64,000 nt of DNA from Actinomycetota bacterium (GCA_019348135.1 JAHWJY010000001.1:17973-81972), one strand, 5' to 3'; shown: positions 50,762-59,065, counted from the first letter of the stretch. Notes: generated from the letters alone by a model not told the origin. Numbers and translations are program-made.

Positions 50762-51604
50762 TCAGCCCGTGGGCAGGTGCAGGACGTCGCCCTCCACCGC
50801 CACGCGGACCGGTCGCGTCGCGTCCGCGTACGCCGCGGCGATGGCGTCGAGCTCGGGATCGGTACGGGCCGGATCGTGGTGGAACAGCAGCAGCGAGCCG
50901 ACGTCGCAGACGTCCGCGAGCCCGACGGCGTAGTCGATGGTGCTGTGACCGAAGTCGGCGCGGGCGCCGAACTCCGAGCGCGTGTACTGGGCGTCGTGGA
51001 GCAGGAGGTCGACGCCGTCGACGAGCTCCCGGGCCGCCGGGTGGTACGGGCCGAAGCCGTCGGGGCCGGGGCCGAGCCCGAACGGGTGGTGGTCCGAGAG
51101 GTAGGCGAGGCTGCCGCTGGCGTCGCTCACGCGGTAGCCGAAGGTGCGGCCGCCCTTGTGCGGGATCTCGCGGGCGAGGACCTCGAACCCCTCGATGACC
51201 GTCGTGCCCTCCTCCAGGGCGACGAACCGCCACGCCCCGCGGAGCTGGTCGGGACGGATCGGGAAGTGCGGCGGGGACATCCCGCGCGCGAGCACCTCCA
51301 CCGGGTCACCTCCCTGCGCCGGCAGGTAGAGGTCGACGCGCGCCCGGGGATCGTCGCCGGCGCGGAAGAACGGCAGCCCCTGGGTGTGGTCCCAGTGGAG
51401 GTGGCCGAGCAGGATCGAGCCGTCGAAGGCCGCGCCGTCGAGCAGCGCGGCGACGCGACGCAGGCCGGTCCCGGCATCGAGCAGGAGCGACGGCGGCTCG
51501 CCGTCGTGGGCCAGGGCCACGCACGAGGTGTGGCCCCCGTAGCGGACGGACTCGGGGCCGGGGGTGGGGGTCGAGCCCCGGGACCCGCAGATGTGGACCT
51601 GCAG
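50762..51604 (-). CDS. MBL-fold metallo-hydrolase (candidate cyclic-nucleotide phosphodiesterase); start unresolved
   Basis: HxHxDH motif LLGHLHWDHTQG. The conserved N-terminal strand LQVHICGSRGSTPTPG lies upstream of the first ATG/GTG (51520) in the same frame. The only plausible start there is CTG 51604, after GAGGA. Confidence 0.7.
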   Translation of the reverse strand: MQVHICGSRGSTPTPGPESVRYGGHTSCVALAHDGEPPSLLLDAGTGLRRVAALLDGAAFDGSILLGHLHWDHTQGLPFFRAGDDPRARVDLYLPAQGGDPVEVLARGMSPPHFPIRPDQLRGAWRFVALEEGTTVIEGFEVLAREIPHKGGRTFGYRVSDASGSLAYLSDHHPFGLGPGPDGFGPYHPAARELVDGVDLLLHDAQYTRSEFGARADFGHSTIDYAVGLADVCDVGSLLLFHHDPARTDPELDAIAAAYADATRPVRVAVEGDVLHLPTG

Positions 51605-51668: not shown

Positions 51669-52673
51669 TCAGGTGACGGGAGTCTCGCGCCGGTGGCCCG
51701 TGGCCAGCTGCGCCAGGGCGTCCCGGTCGATCTGACCCGCTGCGGCGACCGCGACCTTACAACCCGTCACGGCGCGCAACGTCGAGGTCCGCGCCCCACC
51801 CTCGAGGATGGCCCGCTCCCCCACGATCGCCCCCGGACCGAGCTGCGCCAGGACCTCACCGTCGACCTCCACCTCGAGCACCCCGTCCAGGAGCAGGTAG
51901 AGGTCGTCACCGTCGGATCCCTGCTCCGTGAGGAGCTCGCCCGCCCCGAGCCGGTCGATCCGGGGCGACGTGCCGGAGCGCATGATCGTCAGGGACAGCT
52001 GCCGTTCGAGCTCCGTCTCGACCTGGGTGATGAGGGCCGGCGTGTCGACGTCCCCCCACGGGGTGTTGTCGCCGAAGTGTTCGCGAGACCACGTCGAGAA
52101 GTCGGTGATGCCGCTCTTCGCGACGAGCCGACCGTCGCCGTCGTAGATCCAGTGACGCGGGAAGGGGCTCGCACCGCGCACCTCGTGCTCGACCCGACCG
52201 TCCGCGTGCAGGGTGAGCGACAGCGTCGTCCAGGCGGTCGGCGGGGAGATCCGCACGAAGGGCGGCTTGCTGACCCGACGGGGCATCGGCGCGCCGGTCC
52301 TGCCGCCCGACGTCTGCTCGAACCGGACCCACCCGTCCCCGACCTCGGGCTCCGGCCGCAGGTCCGGGAACGCGACGGGCTGGAAGGCGAACACCTTGCG
52401 GGACCCGAGGTGCACGTCGGTCGTGGAGATGTAGCTGCGGCCGAGGTGCTCCCACCCCGCGATACGGCCGTCGCCGTCGACCTCGATGGCCGCCGACAGG
52501 AGGTTGGCGAAGCGGAACCGTCCCTCCTCGTTCAGCAGCTGCAGGTCCTCGACGTGGTCCGGCGGCGGGTCGTCGTAGTGGCCGATCCCGATGTCCATGG
52601 GGATCCGCATGTGGCCGCTGATCGCCTCGGACGGGATCCACGAGATGGAGAAGACCTTCGCTTCGATACGCAT
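51669..52673 (-). CDS. protein with unrecognised ~240-aa N-terminal domain and C-terminal cyclic-nucleotide-binding (CNB) domain
   Basis: ATG at 52673 (MRIEAKVFSISWIPSE...). C-terminal CNB features: GELLTEQG..LYLLLDGVLEV... and a phosphate-binding cassette GERAILEGGARTSTLRA. Confidence 0.75.
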   Translation of the reverse strand: MRIEAKVFSISWIPSEAISGHMRIPMDIGIGHYDDPPPDHVEDLQLLNEEGRFRFANLLSAAIEVDGDGRIAGWEHLGRSYISTTDVHLGSRKVFAFQPVAFPDLRPEPEVGDGWVRFEQTSGGRTGAPMPRRVSKPPFVRISPPTAWTTLSLTLHADGRVEHEVRGASPFPRHWIYDGDGRLVAKSGITDFSTWSREHFGDNTPWGDVDTPALITQVETELERQLSLTIMRSGTSPRIDRLGAGELLTEQGSDGDDLYLLLDGVLEVEVDGEVLAQLGPGAIVGERAILEGGARTSTLRAVTGCKVAVAAAGQIDRDALAQLATGHRRETPVT

Positions 52674-52770
52674 GCCCGGCTCCTGCTGCTCGGATGCTGC
52701 GAGTGTCCGCGGCCACGTCACCGGTGTCGCTGGTGCCTTCGGGTCGATCGGGGTGGGGACAGCACCACCC

Positions 52771-55011
52771 TCAGGCCGTCGGCGCGGCGGTGGTGACGCG
52801 GTCCGTGGCGGCGACCGGGATGCGGCCCTCGACGCGTGTCCCCCGCCCCGGCGCCGAGTCGATCGACACGTGCCCCCCGAGCGCGTCGAGCCGGTCACGC
52901 ATGTTCTGCAGTCCCGCGCCGTCCCCGATGTCGGACGTGTCGAACCCCGCCCCGTCGTCGACGACCGCGAAGCGCAGGAAGCCGCCCTCGTCGGACAGCT
53001 CGAGCCGCACCAACGACGCCTCGGCGTACTTCGCCACGTTCTGCAGCGCCTCGAGGCAGCAGAAGTAGACGGCCGCCTCGATGTCCTGGCCGTAGCGGTC
53101 GAGCTCGCCGCTCTCGACCACCACGGGGAGGTGGAAGCGCTCCGCGCGGGAGCCGAGCGCGGTGGTGAGCCCGCGCTCCGCCAGGAGCGGCGGGTAGATG
53201 CCGTGCGCGAGCTCGCGCAGCGTCTTGACGGCCTCCTCGGCCTCGTCGGCGAGCTGCCCCAGGAGATCGTCGACGTCACGACCCATCTGGACCATCCGCT
53301 GCGCGAGTCCGAGCTTGACCCGCAGCGACACGAGCTGCTGTTGGGCCCCGTCGTGGAGGTTGCGCTCCAGGCGCCGGCGGACCTCGTCCTGGGCCGTGAT
53401 GACGCGTTGCCGTGATTCCACCAGCTGCGCCACGTGCTCGAGGAGCTCGGCGGTCAGGCGGACGTTCCGCAACAGCAGTCCGGCCTGACCGGCGAGGGTG
53501 TGGAGGAGCCGCTGGTCGACCGGCGCGAGCGAGCCGTCCCCGGGCAGGGTCAGTGCCAGGACCCCGAGCAGCTCGCCGTCGTGGCGCACCGGCACGGCCA
53601 CGGATGCCGGTAGCGCCGGGAGGTCGTCGCCGGTGAGCGGGAGGGGGCGGTGCGGGGCGCCGCCCCCGGGCCACGACGCCGCGGGTCGGAGCTCGTCGCC
53701 GATCCGGAGCCAGATGTCCGACCGACGGGCCGCGGTGCCCTCACCGAGCACCTGGGCCAGCCTCACGAGCTTGTCCTCGGTCTCGGTCTCCTCACCCACC
53801 TGGGTCGAGAAGTCGGCGAGGGTCTCGAGCGGGGTCGCACGGCGGCCGTAGACCATGCGGTCGGCGAGCCGCTTGACGCGCTCCCGTGCCGGCTCGAACG
53901 CGATCGCGACCAGGCCCGTCGCGACGACCGACAGCACGAGGTTGTCGTTCTGGGCGCCGACCAGCCGTCCGATGCCGACCACCACGCCGACGTACACGAG
54001 GGTGACCAGTCCAGCCAGGCTCGTGTAGGTCAGGGCCCGCGTGATGATGCGGTCGATGCCCCACAGCCGGAAGCGCACCACGCCGGCGAACAGCGCCAGC
54101 GGGATGATCGCGAAGACCGGCTGGAAGACGCGGAACAGCTCGACCGGGATGATGGCGATCGAGCGGCCCCCGTAGACCTCGAACGCCGACGCCGTCGAGC
54201 CGCGCGCCACGACGTAGAGACCGAGCACCAACGCCGGTGCGAGCGCCCAGAACATGGTCCGCGCCTGGGCCCGCTCGGCGGTGCCGGTGGCCCGGGCCAG
54301 TCGGTAGGCCTGGGCCGCGACGCCGACGGCCGGCGTGAGCAGCCCGAACACGATCAGGACCGCGAGCGTGCGCGAGGTCCCGCTGATGCGGAAGGCGACC
54401 ACGCCGACGGTCACGCTCACGATCCCGTAGAGGCCGGCCAGCCGGACCGGCGACCAGCGCGGGACGGGACGGCCGTCGGGGAAGACCAGCAGGGCCGCGA
54501 TGTAGGCCCCCGCGGCGACCACGTGGAAGGCCACGTTGCCGGCCTGATCGAGGAACGAGGCCTGCATCTGCTCGTAGACCGCGTACGCCTGGAGGTTGAA
54601 CACGGCCGCCGTGCCGACGAGCGCGACCGCCAGCAGCCGGGCGGTGCGTTCCCGGGGGCGGAGCCACAGGAGGAACCCGGCCAGGGCGAGGTTGACGAGG
54701 CTGAAGGCGTAGTCGAGCACGAGGCCCCACGCCGGCTCGGCCGCGTGGCTGGCATCCGCCACGGCCGCGAACCGCGGTGCGAGCGCGCCGCTCGTGAACG
54801 CGAGCTCATGCAACCGGTCGTGGAGGCCGAGTGGCAGCGCCAGCGCGGCGGCCAGCCCGGCCATGAGCGCCACCACGGCGTAGGCGACGTACACGGCCAG
54901 TCCGACGGCGAAGGCCCAGTCGGCGCTGCGCCACGACCGCAGCGCGGACCCGGCACCGCCGGCCGGAGCGGTCGCTCCGGTCGGCGGGTCCGAGACCTCA
55001 GCGGCGCTCAT
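52771..55011 (-). CDS. multi-TM sensor histidine kinase with GAF domain, HisKA_3 and HATPase_c (NarL-partner type)
   Basis: ATG at 55011. About 8 N-terminal TM helices, a GAF-like region, the H-box LERNLHDGAQQQL and the ATPase motifs LEALQNVAKY, DDGAGF, GLQNMRDRL. Confidence 0.9.
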   Translation of the reverse strand: MSAAEVSDPPTGATAPAGGAGSALRSWRSADWAFAVGLAVYVAYAVVALMAGLAAALALPLGLHDRLHELAFTSGALAPRFAAVADASHAAEPAWGLVLDYAFSLVNLALAGFLLWLRPRERTARLLAVALVGTAAVFNLQAYAVYEQMQASFLDQAGNVAFHVVAAGAYIAALLVFPDGRPVPRWSPVRLAGLYGIVSVTVGVVAFRISGTSRTLAVLIVFGLLTPAVGVAAQAYRLARATGTAERAQARTMFWALAPALVLGLYVVARGSTASAFEVYGGRSIAIIPVELFRVFQPVFAIIPLALFAGVVRFRLWGIDRIITRALTYTSLAGLVTLVYVGVVVGIGRLVGAQNDNLVLSVVATGLVAIAFEPARERVKRLADRMVYGRRATPLETLADFSTQVGEETETEDKLVRLAQVLGEGTAARRSDIWLRIGDELRPAASWPGGGAPHRPLPLTGDDLPALPASVAVPVRHDGELLGVLALTLPGDGSLAPVDQRLLHTLAGQAGLLLRNVRLTAELLEHVAQLVESRQRVITAQDEVRRRLERNLHDGAQQQLVSLRVKLGLAQRMVQMGRDVDDLLGQLADEAEEAVKTLRELAHGIYPPLLAERGLTTALGSRAERFHLPVVVESGELDRYGQDIEAAVYFCCLEALQNVAKYAEASLVRLELSDEGGFLRFAVVDDGAGFDTSDIGDGAGLQNMRDRLDALGGHVSIDSAPGRGTRVEGRIPVAATDRVTTAAPTA

Positions 55012-55025
55012 CGTGGCCGCGATCC

Positions 55026-56330
55026 CTACGCCTCCTCGACGACGACGCTGCCGACCATCGCCGGGTGGACCAGGCAGGCGTACGAGTACCGGCCCGGCTC
55101 GGTGAACGTCACGCTGTACGTACCGTCGAAGAACATCCCCGAGGACAGGAACGACCTTCCGTCCCAGGTCCCGGCGTCCACCGCCACCGGCTCCGGCGGC
55201 GGGCCGCCCGGCGGGCCCCCGCCTTCGCCCTCGCCTTCGCCGCCGGGCGCACCCTCACCCTCGGCCTCTCCCTCGCCCGGGGGCGGACCCTCGGCGGCCG
55301 GATGGCCCGGGCCGCCGCGGGGCTGCAGCGCGTCCGGACTGAAGATGACCGTGCCGTCGTCCTCGATCGAGAGCTGGGTGAAGTAGTCGGGGACGTTGAA
55401 GCTGACGGTGTGCCCGCCCACGAAGGACCACGTGATCGACTCCCCGACCGTGACGGTGTTCTCCTTGGGGATGAACTCGTCGATCACCGCGTGGGTCGTG
55501 GTGGGCTCGTCCGAGCCCCAGCCCGCGTACGGCTTGCGGACCTCCTGGCCGAAGATCGTGGCCGCGTCGGAGGCGCGTGCCTCCTCCAACGCCGCAGCGA
55601 GCGGCGCGGTGACCTCCTCGATCTCGGCGAGCGCCTGCCGGGCGACGTCCGCCTCCGACGGGATCTCCTCGTCCGCCCCGACGACCGTGATCGTCCCCGC
55701 CTGGAACGGCCCGTGGACGTTGCAGTAGTAGGCGTAGGTGCCCGGCTCGATGTCGTTCGCCAGCACGACGTCGAACGTGTTGCCGCGCTCGCCGGCGTAG
55801 GGGATGAACCCGGAGTTGTAGTACGACTGGCGGCCGTCGAAGGCTGGCTGCTCCTGCTGCTCGTCGGTGCAGGGCTCCATGGGGTCCTCCGGCGGCGCAC
55901 CCTCGTCGAGGTAGCACGGCTGGCCGACGTTCTGGTTCACCGGTCCGCCCTCGAGGGTGTCGGGGAGCATGTACGGCAGTGCCGCCGACGCCGCCATGAA
56001 CTCCTCGAACACCTCCGGCGGGATCTCGTCGTCGGGGAGGTGGCCGTACTTCTCGATGAGCGGTGAGATGACCCCCATCATCTCGTCGACCATCGTGCCC
56101 ATGGTCACCGAGTGCGGCTCCCCGGTCCACTCCTGGCGGAAGTTGACGGTGTCGCCGGGGCGCAGCGTCACGTCCCGCGGGAAGTACGCCAGGTACGAGG
56201 CCGCGAACTCGTCGTGCACGTAGTCGACGAGCACCTCACGCGACTGCGCGCCCCCGGCATCGCCGCCGCACGCCGCCCCCACCGCGGCTAGCGCACCCGC
56301 CGCCACCACGATCGCCATCCGTCCACGCAT
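55026..56330 (-). CDS. lipoprotein with two cupredoxin-like (type-1 copper) modules
   Basis: Lipobox AVGAAC. Module 1: GEPHSVTM ... YYCNVHGPFQAG. Module 2: GGHTVSF ... YACLVHPAMVG. A Gly/Glu/Pro-rich insert lies within module 2. Its stop is 14 nt upstream of the kinase start. Confidence 0.75.
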   Translation of the reverse strand: MRGRMAIVVAAGALAAVGAACGGDAGGAQSREVLVDYVHDEFAASYLAYFPRDVTLRPGDTVNFRQEWTGEPHSVTMGTMVDEMMGVISPLIEKYGHLPDDEIPPEVFEEFMAASAALPYMLPDTLEGGPVNQNVGQPCYLDEGAPPEDPMEPCTDEQQEQPAFDGRQSYYNSGFIPYAGERGNTFDVVLANDIEPGTYAYYCNVHGPFQAGTITVVGADEEIPSEADVARQALAEIEEVTAPLAAALEEARASDAATIFGQEVRKPYAGWGSDEPTTTHAVIDEFIPKENTVTVGESITWSFVGGHTVSFNVPDYFTQLSIEDDGTVIFSPDALQPRGGPGHPAAEGPPPGEGEAEGEGAPGGEGEGEGGGPPGGPPPEPVAVDAGTWDGRSFLSSGMFFDGTYSVTFTEPGRYSYACLVHPAMVGSVVVEEA

Positions 56331-56565
56331 CCTGCGGCTCCCGTCCCCTGCCCCGTGGCCACGGCGTGCGCCGCCGACCGTGGGCATCTTCGCCGAGGCG
56401 CCGAGGACGGCGGAAGGGTACGTCCCTGCGTATGCGACGTGTGGCTAGCACCACCATGGATGCGGAGGCGGCCACCCCTTGCCCCCATGCGCGCCAGCGG
56501 CGACCATCCGGGTCCGCTCGACCTCCTCCTCGCCGGAGAGCGCTCCGGCCGCCTCCGGGAGACCG

Positions 56566-57879
56566 ATGACCGCAGCCGCGCACATCAGCGTCTTCCTCGC
56601 CGACGACAACCTGATCGTCCGCGAGGGGGTCCGGGCGCTCCTGGACCTCGAGGACGACATCGAGGTCGTCGGTACCGCCGGCGACTACGACGGGCTGGTC
56701 GCCGGGGCGGAGGAGGCGAACCCGAACGTCGTCGTGACCGACATCCGTATGCCGCCGGACTTCCGCCGCGAGGGCATCGAGGCCGCCAAGGAGGTCCGCA
56801 AGCGGCATCCGGGGACGGGCATCGTGATCCTCAGCCAGTACGACGACCCGGAGTACGCGGTCTCGCTCCTGTCCGAGGGCGCCGCCGGCTACGCCTACCT
56901 CCTGAAGGACCGCGTCGGCGAGGGTGACCAGCTCGCGCGTGCGGTCCGCGAGGTGGCGTCGGGGGGCTCGATGCTCGATCCGACCATCGTCGAGTCGTTG
57001 ACCCGCCCCGTCGCCCCCGTCTCGGGCCTGTCCCGCGAGGAGGAGCAGCTGCTGACCGCGATCGCGGAGGGCCGGCCGATCAAGGCGATCGCTGCCCAGC
57101 GTCGGACCACGGCCGCCGCGGTCGACGCCGAGATCGAGAAGCTGTGGGTCAAGCTCGCCGCCGGGTTGTCCGCCGGCGACAGCAGCAGTCTGGAACGGTT
57201 GAAGATGCTCCACCGGGCCATCATCGACCGGGAGGAGCAGGGTGAGAGCCTGTCACGACTGCTCCCGGCGGGGCTCGCCGAGAAGCTCCACGCCGAGGGC
57301 CGGCGACCCGGGGAGTCCGAGGAGCTCGTCGTCACCGTGCTGATGAGCGATATCCGCAGCTACTCCACGATCGCCGAACGGACCGACCCGTCGCTGCTGG
57401 CCAGGCAGCTGCACGAGCACCGCGGTGCCATGAACCGGGCCGTGCACGCGGCCGGCGGTACGGTCATGCAGTTCGTCGGTGACGCGGTGATGGCCGTCTT
57501 CGGGGCGCCGTCCCCGAGCCCCGACCACGCCGACCGGTCCGTGACCGCGGCGGCCGCCATGCACGCCGCCCAGGACGCCGTCAACGAGCGCTGGGCCGGC
57601 CAGGGGCTCGAGCCGTTCGGCCTCGGGATCGGGCTGTCGACGGGCAGGGTCGCAGCGGCCATCCTCGGCTCGGAGGAACGCCTCGAGTACTCGCTCGTCG
57701 GCGACACGGTGAACCTCACCCAGCGGCTCCAGCAGTGGGCCGAGCCCGGCGAGACGGTGCTCATCGAGGCCACCCGGGCGGCGTTGGAGCGACCGCTCAC
57801 CTGCGAGAAGCTCGAGCCGTCGCTGGTGAAGGGGCGTGCACACCCGGTGGTGGCCTACCGGTTCCCGCCCCGCGGCTGA
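56566..57879 (+). CDS. response-regulator receiver - LuxR-type HTH - class III nucleotidyl cyclase fusion
   Basis: REC: FLADDN, VVVTDIRMPP, ILSQY, AYLLKD. HTH: LSREEEQLLTAIAEGRPIKAIAA. Cyclase: VLMSDIRSYS, FVGDAVMAVFG, GDTVNLTQR. Confidence 0.85.
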   Translation: MTAAAHISVFLADDNLIVREGVRALLDLEDDIEVVGTAGDYDGLVAGAEEANPNVVVTDIRMPPDFRREGIEAAKEVRKRHPGTGIVILSQYDDPEYAVSLLSEGAAGYAYLLKDRVGEGDQLARAVREVASGGSMLDPTIVESLTRPVAPVSGLSREEEQLLTAIAEGRPIKAIAAQRRTTAAAVDAEIEKLWVKLAAGLSAGDSSSLERLKMLHRAIIDREEQGESLSRLLPAGLAEKLHAEGRRPGESEELVVTVLMSDIRSYSTIAERTDPSLLARQLHEHRGAMNRAVHAAGGTVMQFVGDAVMAVFGAPSPSPDHADRSVTAAAAMHAAQDAVNERWAGQGLEPFGLGIGLSTGRVAAAILGSEERLEYSLVGDTVNLTQRLQQWAEPGETVLIEATRAALERPLTCEKLEPSLVKGRAHPVVAYRFPPRG

Positions 57880-57897: not shown

Positions 57898-58269
57898 TCA
57901 GGCGACCGCCGCACCGTTCCATGCCTCCTCGAGCGCGTCGGGCGTGAAGGCCGACTTCGACACGAACGCGATCGCCCCCGCCTCGGTCGCCCGGGGGCCG
58001 TACTCGGTCGCCTCGTAGGTCGACAGCACGACCACGCGGATCGAGCTCGCCCCGGCGAGGATCCGCCGGGTCGCCTCGAGCCCGTCGATGCCCGGGAGGT
58101 TCACGTCCATCAGCACGAGATCGGGATGCAGGTCGAGCGCCTTCGCGACGGCCTCCTCCCCGGTCTCCGCCTCGTCGAGGACCTCGAAGTCGTCGGTCAT
58201 CTCGACCACCATCCGTGCCGCAGAGCGGAACGGCGCCTGGTCGTCGACGATCAGGACTCGCACAGCCAC
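57898..58269 (-). CDS. stand-alone response-regulator receiver (CheY-like)
   Basis: AAGGAG RBS then GTG at 58269. Motifs LIVDDQ, LVLMDVNLPG, VVVLSTY, AFVSKS. No output domain. Confidence 0.88.
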   Translation of the reverse strand: MAVRVLIVDDQAPFRSAARMVVEMTDDFEVLDEAETGEEAVAKALDLHPDLVLMDVNLPGIDGLEATRRILAGASSIRVVVLSTYEATEYGPRATEAGAIAFVSKSAFTPDALEEAWNGAAVA

Positions 58270-58396
58270 GTCGGCTCCTTCTCGGGAGGCGAGGGTCGCC
58301 CACCGGTCGGATCGGAGCCAGCCTGCCAGCACGGGACCTCGTGGTGTGGTTACCACTACCGCCCGAACGGGTCCTCCCGGCCGTTCGCGGCATGGT

Positions 58397-59065
58397 TCAG
58401 TCGGACTGGGCTCCGAGGAAGACCAGCACCGCCTGGACGCGCCGGTGGGTGTCGCCCTCGTTGGACAGGTCGAGCTTGTCGAAGATCGAGTTGATGTGCT
58501 TCTCGACGGCACGCTCGGTGACGAACAGGGCGCCCGCGATGGCCGAGTTGTTCTTTCCCTTCGCGATCTCCGCGAGCACCTCGGTCTCGCGCGGGGTCAG
58601 CCGGTCGAGCGACGACGACGGCTGGCTCGTGCGCGCCACGACGAGCGAGTCGACGACCTTCGGATCGATGACCGATCCCCCGGCGGCGACGGCCCGGATG
58701 GCCTCGTGCAGCTGGTCGATGTCCCCGACGCGCTCCTTCAGCAGGTAGGCGCGTCCCTGTGAGCCGCTGTCGAACAGGCTCAGGGCGTAGCTCGCGTCGG
58801 CGTACTGGCTGAGCACCACCACGCCCGTGTCGGGGTGGCTCTCACGCAGGCGCTCGGCCGCCCGGATCCCCTCGTCGGTGCCGGTCGGCGGCATCCGGAT
58901 GTCGGTCAGCACGACGTCGGGGTTGTGCTCGTCGACGGCCGCGTACAGGCCGTCGAGATCCTCGACGACGGCGACGAGCTCGACGTCGTCGAGCTCGGCG
59001 AGGAGCAGCTTCACGCCCTCACGGACGAGGTAGCTGTCCTCGGCCAGGACCACGCGGATCGACAT
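58397..59065 (-). CDS. NarL/FixJ-family response regulator (REC + LuxR HTH)
   Basis: ATG at 59065. Motifs VVLTDIRMPP, VVVLSQY, AYLLKE. HTH: LTPRETEVLAEIAKGKNNSAIAGALFVTERAVEKHINSIFDKL. Confidence 0.93.
   Translation of the reverse strand: MSIRVVLAEDSYLVREGVKLLLAELDDVELVAVVEDLDGLYAAVDEHNPDVVLTDIRMPPTGTDEGIRAAERLRESHPDTGVVVLSQYADASYALSLFDSGSQGRAYLLKERVGDIDQLHEAIRAVAAGGSVIDPKVVDSLVVARTSQPSSSLDRLTPRETEVLAEIAKGKNNSAIAGALFVTERAVEKHINSIFDKLDLSNEGDTHRRVQAVLVFLGAQSD

Follow-up and report, generated by a model that had tools for sequence, protein, structure and literature searches.

The X-CNB gene and its cyclic nucleotide-binding module

We analyzed a 64,000-nucleotide stretch of DNA from an Actinomycetota bacterium (GCA_019348135.1 JAHWJY010000001.1:17973-81972; this whole stretch is called the window below) and, within it, a minus-strand gene at positions 51669..52673 whose 334-residue product (P0001) joins an N-terminal domain, here called X or the N-domain, to a C-terminal cyclic nucleotide-binding (CNB) module. 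We refer to this gene and its relatives as X-CNB. The open reading frame (ORF) begins at an ATG at 52673 and ends with a stop codon at 51669-51671, and a Shine-Dalgarno-like AGGAG, read from the sequence at 52680..52684 of the same strand, precedes the ATG with a 6-nt spacer. Besides the ORF and its translation, the gene is supported by a word-indexed homolog search, scored on residues 1 to 232 and counted in 90%-identity clusters, which returned more than 7,387 clusters with the same length and architecture. A longer in-frame ORF that reaches 53279 was considered and rejected as unsupported. Because every homolog compared starts at the common N terminus MRIE or MRxES, and because the extension overlaps the upstream kinase gene, this extension is not part of the X-CNB gene.

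P0001 is acidic, with an isoelectric point of about 5. It contains no transmembrane segment, the highest-scoring 19-residue Kyte-Doolittle window reaching 1.15, and no Walker A motif or P-loop was found in a motif scan; by its sequence, the protein is predicted to be soluble and cytosolic. An earlier, sequence-based note on this DNA (the initial annotation) had described a CNB-domain protein at this position whose N-terminal part lacks both a transmembrane segment and a P-loop, and both parts of that description were borne out.

The CNB module occupies residues 215 to 334 (51672..52031, minus strand) and comprises an N-terminal helix, a beta-roll, a short C-helix, and a GHRRE tail. The Pfam model PF00027 scored 52.9 bits over residues 241 to 314 (cutoff, 27.5; E = 3.7e-14), and the closest PDB sequence matches of this region were the CNB domains of PKG, PKA-R, PycTIR (8JSK), and MloK1. 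When the full-length AlphaFold model (predicted local distance difference test score [pLDDT] of 76) was compared with known structures by Foldseek, it matched the CNB domains of PKA-R, PKG, PycTIR, CRP, and HCN at E values of 5e-8 to 1e-6, and it displays the eight-stranded CNB beta-roll flanked by helices. The phosphate-binding cassette, GERAILEGGARTSTLRA, was located by alignments and family conservation at residues 285 to 301 (51771..51821, minus strand), and it aligns position by position with the cassettes of PKG and PKA-R, including G285-E286 and R295-T296. In CNB domains, the Gly-Glu pair of this cassette contacts the ribose 2'-OH and the Arg-Thr/Ser pair contacts the phosphate.

We also found the pattern G-E...R-T-[A/S] in 223 of the 231 full-length relatives. 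The initial annotation had recognized a C-terminal cyclic mononucleotide-binding domain with this Gly-Glu...Arg-Thr cassette and had taken it to gate the rest of the protein; since the key residues are present and conserved family-wide, this premise survives a proper alignment. Two further elements of the module are well conserved, namely, the N-terminal helix (approximately residues 219 to 232), in which E219, E223, and R224 are invariant, and the GHRRE tail that closes the short C-helix, which has an HRRE-like counterpart in 195 of the 231 relatives. P0001 ends 20 residues past the beta-roll. Since the CNB module begins near residue 215 when its N-terminal helix is counted, the unassigned N-terminal domain is about 215 residues long, not the approximately 240 of the initial annotation, whose statement that this part of the protein is unassigned was upheld by the searches described below. 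A transcription factor of the CRP/FNR type was rejected: no helix-turn-helix (HTH) match was found in Pfam or NCBIfam, and a match to FtrB covered the CNB region only (20.6 bits; cutoff, 300).

A conserved N-terminal domain in a large protein family

The N-domain (residues 1 to 214; 52032..52673, minus strand) was defined by its conservation, its AlphaFold (AF2) model, and its lack of a characterized relative. It carries the motifs SWIPSE, HYD, RFRFAN, VRFxQTxGGRTG, PRR, WTTLxLT..DG, GASPFPRHWxYD, and TPWGD. No match to this domain was found in Pfam, either for P0001 or for 20 other members of the family, and 13 divergent members searched at E <= 10 gave no recurrent Pfam match. Searches against NCBIfam and PADLOC and a phmmer search against PDB sequences likewise returned no match, a profile of divergent members had 0 matches in the PDB at E <= 10, and the precomputed Pfam annotations of about 230 relatives list PF00027 only. 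No literature on the domain was found. Thus, the view that this part of the protein can be assigned to no family, put forward from the single sequence, withstood every one of these comparisons.

To describe the fold, we assembled an alignment of 72 sequences with less than 72% pairwise identity, with the N-domain as target. A divergent-member profile search aimed at distant clades returned mostly consensus-like members, and these were added as rows of this alignment. A separate model of the N-domain was built because the CNB domain had swamped the full-length Foldseek search, which gave CNB matches only. The resulting model has a pLDDT of 86 and a predicted TM-score of 0.83, with no residue below 50, and it shows about 14 beta-strands arranged as a meander, plus several short helices, in agreement with the beta-rich character that the initial annotation had suggested.

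When this model was compared by Foldseek with 350,542 PDB chains, a single match was found at E <= 1e-3, namely, 3C5P (E = 2.5e-4, probability 1.00, approximately 237 aligned columns), with TM-scores of 0.45 (TMq) and 0.52 (TMt), a root mean square deviation of 9.5 Å, and 13% identity. The remaining matches had probabilities below 0.5, with major histocompatibility complex platforms, RAD52, and BPIFA1 below 0.2, and a comparison with a separate viral structure library gave nothing. 3C5P is BAS0735 of Bacillus anthracis str. Sterne, a structural genomics target annotated as being of unknown function; this only significant structural neighbor differs from X-CNB in having 194 residues and no CNB domain, and the profile search of the PDB found no relation between them at the sequence level. 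A literature search on 3C5P and BAS0735 found nothing relevant. Because the sole structural match is a protein of no characterized family, the structural comparison leaves the novelty of the domain intact.

The family defined by this domain is large, and it is neither rare nor peculiar to the source genome. In addition to the clusters counted above, an exhaustive phmmer search of 1.84 billion representatives with the N-domain gave 1,182 matches. The 120 X-CNB clusters that were listed have lengths of 310 to 367 residues, apart from one 260-residue partial record, and PF00027 is their sole Pfam domain; where public names are given, they read "cyclic nucleotide-binding domain-containing protein" or "hypothetical protein." Within the 72-sequence set, 23 positions of the N-domain are invariant and about 60 more are nearly so. 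The core that survives at about 40% identity comprises W12, P14, D34, R54, Q120, G123, W148, T150, D158-G159, S169, P172, R173, H174, Y177, and P205-W206-G207. Mean pairwise identity is 63% in the N-domain and 64.5% in the CNB domain, so the two halves of the protein are equally conserved. The conserved polar and aromatic residues of the N-domain are dense (D34, R54, N57, Q120, D158, S169, R173, H174, Y177, W12, W148, W175, and W206), and we infer that this set forms a catalytic site or a site that binds a small molecule or a partner.

The N-domain occurs almost exclusively as a partner of a CNB domain. We sought alternative architectures among 50%-identity representatives of unusual length, and this listing of fusion partners, which the initial annotation had proposed, yielded only a few rare variants. 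Most odd-length fusions (for example, P0208, "TrkA_N"; P0142, "SBP_bac_5"; P0150; P0221; and P0162) were rejected, being mostly frameshifts, fragments at contig ends, or chimeric assemblies. Three metagenomic sequences may be genuine variants: P0129, with the N-domain followed by two CNB domains (472 residues); P0132, with the N-domain, a CNB domain, and an Mpo1-like PF06127 domain (452 residues); and P0126, with the N-domain and a helical tail of about 95 residues (315 residues). P0126 has this tail in place of a CNB domain and, if genuine, shows that the N-domain can exist without the CNB sensor.

Few allosteric switches are as well understood as CNB domains, and the output domain sets the role of a CNB protein. 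X-CNB shares the beta-roll, the Gly-Glu and Arg-Thr/Ser cassette, and a fused output domain with known bacterial CNB effectors, such as CRP/Cmr, the mycobacterial cyclic AMP (cAMP)-gated acetyltransferase Pat/Rv0998, the MloK1 channel, and PycTIR. It differs from them in that its output is not an HTH, acetyltransferase, channel, TIR, GGDEF, or kinase domain, in that the CNB domain is C-terminal to the output, and in having the family-specific GHRRE tail.

Gene neighborhood and distribution

To place the gene in context, we compared the neighbors at the source locus with 80 fetched loci by tblastn; these loci hold the closest X-CNB relatives, so the synteny frequencies given here hold for that clade rather than for the family at large. 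The most conserved neighbor is a plus-strand gene at 56479..57879 in the window, which encodes a receiver (REC) domain, a LuxR-type linker/HTH segment, and a class III nucleotide cyclase domain (PF00072 and PF00211; NarL/MctR-like over residues 36 to 229). A homolog of this REC-HTH-cyclase lies directly divergent from X-CNB, within 600 nt, in 38 of the 67 loci with enough upstream DNA, the cyclase match ending 75 to 417 nt (typically 145 to 250 nt) from where the X-CNB match begins, and at 11 further loci the homolog is found elsewhere within 7 kb, for a total of 49/67. The syntenic cyclases are 63 to 76% identical, which exceeds the identity of X-CNB itself. The initial annotation had placed the CNB protein between a kinase and a metallo-beta-lactamase (MBL) hydrolase; the MBL gene is indeed conserved downstream, but the kinase is not the conserved neighbor on the other side, where the divergent REC-HTH-cyclase is found instead.

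The cyclase domain is nearest to Cya2 (2W01) and CyaB (3R5G), and alignments with these two proteins placed its base-selecting positions at the Gln of TVMQFVGD and the Ser of EYSLVG. All 53 syntenic orthologs have Gln followed by Ser or Thr at this pair (Gln-Ser in 28 and Gln-Thr in 25). In class III cyclases, a Lys/Asp pair selects ATP and a Glu/Cys-Gly-Ser set selects GTP; because Gln with Ser/Thr is neither the Lys/Asp nor the Glu/Cys-Gly pair, the product of the cyclase is not predictable from its sequence. Class III cyclases of the Rv0386 type have Gln at the base-selecting Lys position and Asn at the second. The partner cyclase of X-CNB resembles them in that Gln occupies the Lys/Glu position in its FxGD motif, but differs in its second residue, Ser/Thr, and in its fusion to a REC domain and a LuxR-type segment. 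A literature search on Gln-type cyclases found nothing specific. Distant REC-cyclase paralogs (42 to 48% identity) are present in 14 of 16 genomes of a family that is without X-CNB (f18).

The MBL-fold hydrolase, a candidate cyclic-nucleotide phosphodiesterase, is encoded at 50762..51520 on the minus strand (PF12706, E = 2.4e-16), and its HxHxDH motif reads GHLHWDH. In 36 of 70 loci, X-CNB is followed about 100 nt downstream by a PF12706 MBL gene of the same orientation. In the window, the conserved N terminus of the MBL proteins (..HICGSRGSTPTPGPESVRYGGHTSCVAL..) is encoded in frame at 51520-51604 on the minus strand, upstream of the first ATG, GTG, or TTG at 51520; the true start is probably near 51604 and is either non-canonical or mis-called. 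Rv1339, CpdA of Corynebacterium glutamicum, and YhfI are PF12706 atypical class II cAMP phosphodiesterases with a [T/S]HxHxDH motif (PMC9293780). The window protein is like them in its PF12706 domain, its HxHxDH metal motif, and its cyclic-nucleotide gene context. Its only PDB sequence match is RNase Z (E = 1.4e-3).

Between the cyclase and X-CNB genes, the window holds two more minus-strand genes, one for a multi-transmembrane GAF-HisKA_3 histidine kinase (52771..55011; HisKA_3, HATPase_c, and GAF by Pfam) and one for a cupredoxin-domain protein (55026..56387; PF00127). The kinase is likely the kinase of the REC-cyclase, and a HisKA_3 kinase homolog is found within 7 kb on either side of X-CNB in 26 of the 42 loci with full flanks. 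A stand-alone receiver protein is encoded at 57898..58512 on the minus strand (PF00072, E = 1.3e-22); its REC domain spans residues 86 to 197 of the longest ORF, the true start is probably internal to that ORF, and a small receiver homolog occurs in 16 of the 42 full-flank loci. Because the cupredoxin gene is present in only 2 of the 80 loci (L047 and L065), it is lineage specific and not part of the conserved module, and the comparison suggests that the cupredoxin and kinase pair in the window is an insertion between normally adjacent cyclase and X-CNB genes. With these frequencies, the cupredoxin and the kinase were both rejected as obligatory partners. The insertion may couple the genes around it to copper or redox sensing.

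Unsupervised ORF clustering of the loci found no further universal neighbor, although shadow ORFs in this 73% GC DNA blurred the clusters; it recovered lineage-specific genes only, such as those for an ABC ATPase, an FAD oxidoreductase, and methylmalonyl-CoA mutase. No terminator was predicted between the kinase, X-CNB, and MBL genes, in a promoter and terminator scan that was empty and is uninformative for a high-GC actinobacterium.

When a single genome per GTDB species was scanned, X-CNB was present in at least 597 species genomes, nearly all of them metagenome-assembled genomes (MAGs). The carriers include Acidimicrobiia, Nitriliruptoria, Actinomycetes (among them Streptosporangiaceae, Nocardioidaceae, and Geodermatophilaceae), Thermoleophilia, Dormibacterota, and some Chloroflexota. 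When genomes were sampled evenly across the phylum, the phylogenetic profile, another check that had been proposed at the outset, was patchy: X-CNB was found in 40 of 301 genomes, or 25 of the 276 of high quality, and was concentrated in a few families. In one of these, f11, 18 of the 21 genomes carry it, mostly with two to five matches each, and there it is expanded in a different signaling context, mostly without a Gln-type cyclase. Among the 301 genomes, 15 of the 16 with a close cyclase ortholog (at least 59% identity) also carry X-CNB, and the single genome with a close cyclase but no X-CNB match is only 69% complete. The source assembly is itself a MAG (72% complete, 3.17 Mb) with one X-CNB copy. 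A cultured carrier, Salsipaludibacter albus (Nitriliruptoria), belongs to the same family as the source genome; its X-CNB protein (WP_238445823.1, 329 residues) was located by exact look-up at 1768-2757 on the plus strand of the fetched locus L085 (G137:C31:10000-14000).

A candidate cyclic-nucleotide cassette and alternative readings

With the domain architecture, the conservation of the CNB residues, the lack of a characterized relative of the N-domain, the family size, and the gene linkage established, we favor, with modest confidence, the reading that X-CNB is the receptor-effector of a self-contained cyclic-nucleotide cassette (cyclase, receptor, and phosphodiesterase) under the control of a two-component system. 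It probably serves as the receptor in a bacterial second-messenger pathway that is as yet unstudied. In the scheme that we propose, in which the phosphorelay, the ligand, the allosteric route, an output by enzymatic activity or by binding, and the part played by the MBL protein as a phosphodiesterase are all putative, the membrane GAF-HisKA_3 kinase would phosphorylate the receiver domain of the REC-HTH-class III cyclase, and the phosphorylated cyclase (the writer) would make a cyclic mononucleotide. This nucleotide would bind the phosphate-binding cassette of X-CNB through Glu286 and Arg295-Thr296, and by analogy with other CNB proteins, binding would shift the C-terminal lid, formed by the GHRRE tail, together with the CNB N-terminal helix that carries E219, E223, and R224. 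As this helix joins the N-domain directly, its movement could switch the activity of the N-domain, which would be the output of the cassette, a soluble, beta-sheet-rich member of a previously undescribed family. The MBL hydrolase (the eraser) would most likely break down the nucleotide and so reset the system. The description of the N-domain as a ligand-gated output domain, made in the initial annotation, is supported by these data, in which we found neither a family match for the N-domain nor a loss of key CNB residues.

Several observations weigh against this proposal. The metal motif of the window MBL protein, GHLHWDH, begins with Gly, whereas those of Rv1339, CpdA, and YhfI begin with Thr or Ser, and the full-length match to NF041851 (cyclic nucleotide-degrading phosphodiesterase) is weak and far under threshold (29.8 bits; cutoff, 400). 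The MBL gene is missing from the Dormibacterota loci, and about 10 of the 80 loci show no conserved X-CNB neighbor. A close cyclase is present in only 1 of the 21 f11 genomes, compared with the 18 that carry X-CNB; three genomes of the source genome's own family carry X-CNB without a close cyclase; and in S. albus, which has X-CNB, no close Gln-type cyclase ortholog was found at E <= 1e-60. Finally, no catalytic mechanism is identifiable for the N-domain, whose activity, ligand, and partner are putative.

The output could instead be a contact with another protein. In this alternative, which we regard as a minority possibility, the N-domain is a protein-interaction module that docks in the nucleotide-bound state on the cyclase, the kinase, or the MBL protein, so that X-CNB acts as a feedback regulator in a closed homeostatic loop. 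The conserved neighbors are all signaling proteins (cyclase, kinase, receiver, and MBL) with no conserved metabolic or structural target gene among them, the divergent pairing with the cyclase is tight, and both faces of the main beta-strands of the N-domain are conserved, as multiple interaction surfaces would be. However, many genomes and loci hold X-CNB without a close cyclase or a conserved neighbor, so the domain must work there without these partners, and such a density of conserved His, Ser, Asp, Arg, and Tyr residues would more typically mark a ligand-binding or active site. It is because of this conservation and of the X-CNB copies without a conserved neighbor that an autonomous activity of the N-domain is favored, and because there is no conserved non-signaling neighbor that a feedback or adaptor role is kept alive. 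It is unlikely, in our estimate, that the N-domain is a divergent member of a characterized fold or family and the protein an ordinary CNB-regulated form of a known activity. The structure comparison behind this estimate covered PDB chains and the viral library, and the distant solved relative 3C5P gives the fold some precedent, but the confident N-domain model found no characterized structure among the PDB chains, the profile search of the PDB had no match at E <= 10, the Pfam searches with divergent members gave no recurrent one, and public annotations name the CNB domain alone.

We consider it very improbable that X-CNB is an anti-phage effector of the Pycsar kind, in which a cyclase would respond to infection by making a pyrimidine cyclic nucleotide, and the N-domain attached to the CNB would then kill or arrest the cell. 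PADLOC matches the CNB domain to the CNB regions of Pycsar effectors and the cyclase to PycC models, the CNB domain of PycTIR (8JSK) is among the best structural matches, and the non-canonical base-selecting pair leaves pyrimidine products possible. These PADLOC matches, however, cover only the generic CNB (residues 237 to 326) and cyclase domains and leave the N-domain unmatched; the domain order is the reverse of that in Pycsar effectors; the receiver domain and histidine kinase that gate the cyclase form a physiological sensing arrangement; and the module is vertically conserved, with 60 to 75% identity between classes and between phyla, and its chromosomal setting is stable and free of neighboring mobile elements and defense islands. 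A Pycsar effector of the PycTIR or PycTM type was rejected, as P0001 has no TIR domain and no transmembrane segment, and its partner cyclase is REC fused and kinase associated rather than a stand-alone PycC. The receiver-gated cyclase, the stable cross-phylum context, and the N-domain left unmatched in PADLOC and in the viral library thus make a Pycsar-like defense function unlikely.

Returning to the cassette reading, we also consider a bolder form of it, which is speculative and which we hold to be doubtful. Here the N-domain would be both a new fold and a new enzyme family, the dedicated output of a private second-messenger pathway found in members of the Actinomycetota, Dormibacterota, and Chloroflexota from soil and saline habitats. 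The Gln-type cyclase, gated by phosphorylation, would produce a nucleotide that is not cAMP (cGMP, a pyrimidine cyclic mononucleotide, or another), the CNB domain would read it specifically, and an MBL phosphodiesterase devoted to this pathway would erase it.

The known part of the protein is the CNB sensor, and the new part is its output domain, which sits in a conserved cassette. This domain is as conserved as the sensor and is spread over at least 597 species and three phyla, with no Pfam model and no characterized structural relative. The cyclase, X-CNB, and the candidate phosphodiesterase together would make a complete and compact writer-reader-eraser cassette that lends itself to in vitro reconstitution; working it out would bring a new class of effector into bacterial cyclic-nucleotide signaling and could reveal a non-cAMP messenger in mostly uncultured phyla. 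The system is experimentally tractable because there are both a cultured carrier, S. albus, and a closed genome with an intact pair. S. albus is a tractable organism in which the receptor occurs naturally in the absence of the writer that usually accompanies it. In the closed 3.48-Mb genome (locus L082, G160:C1:1642500-1647500), the divergent cyclase and X-CNB genes lie 168 nt apart.

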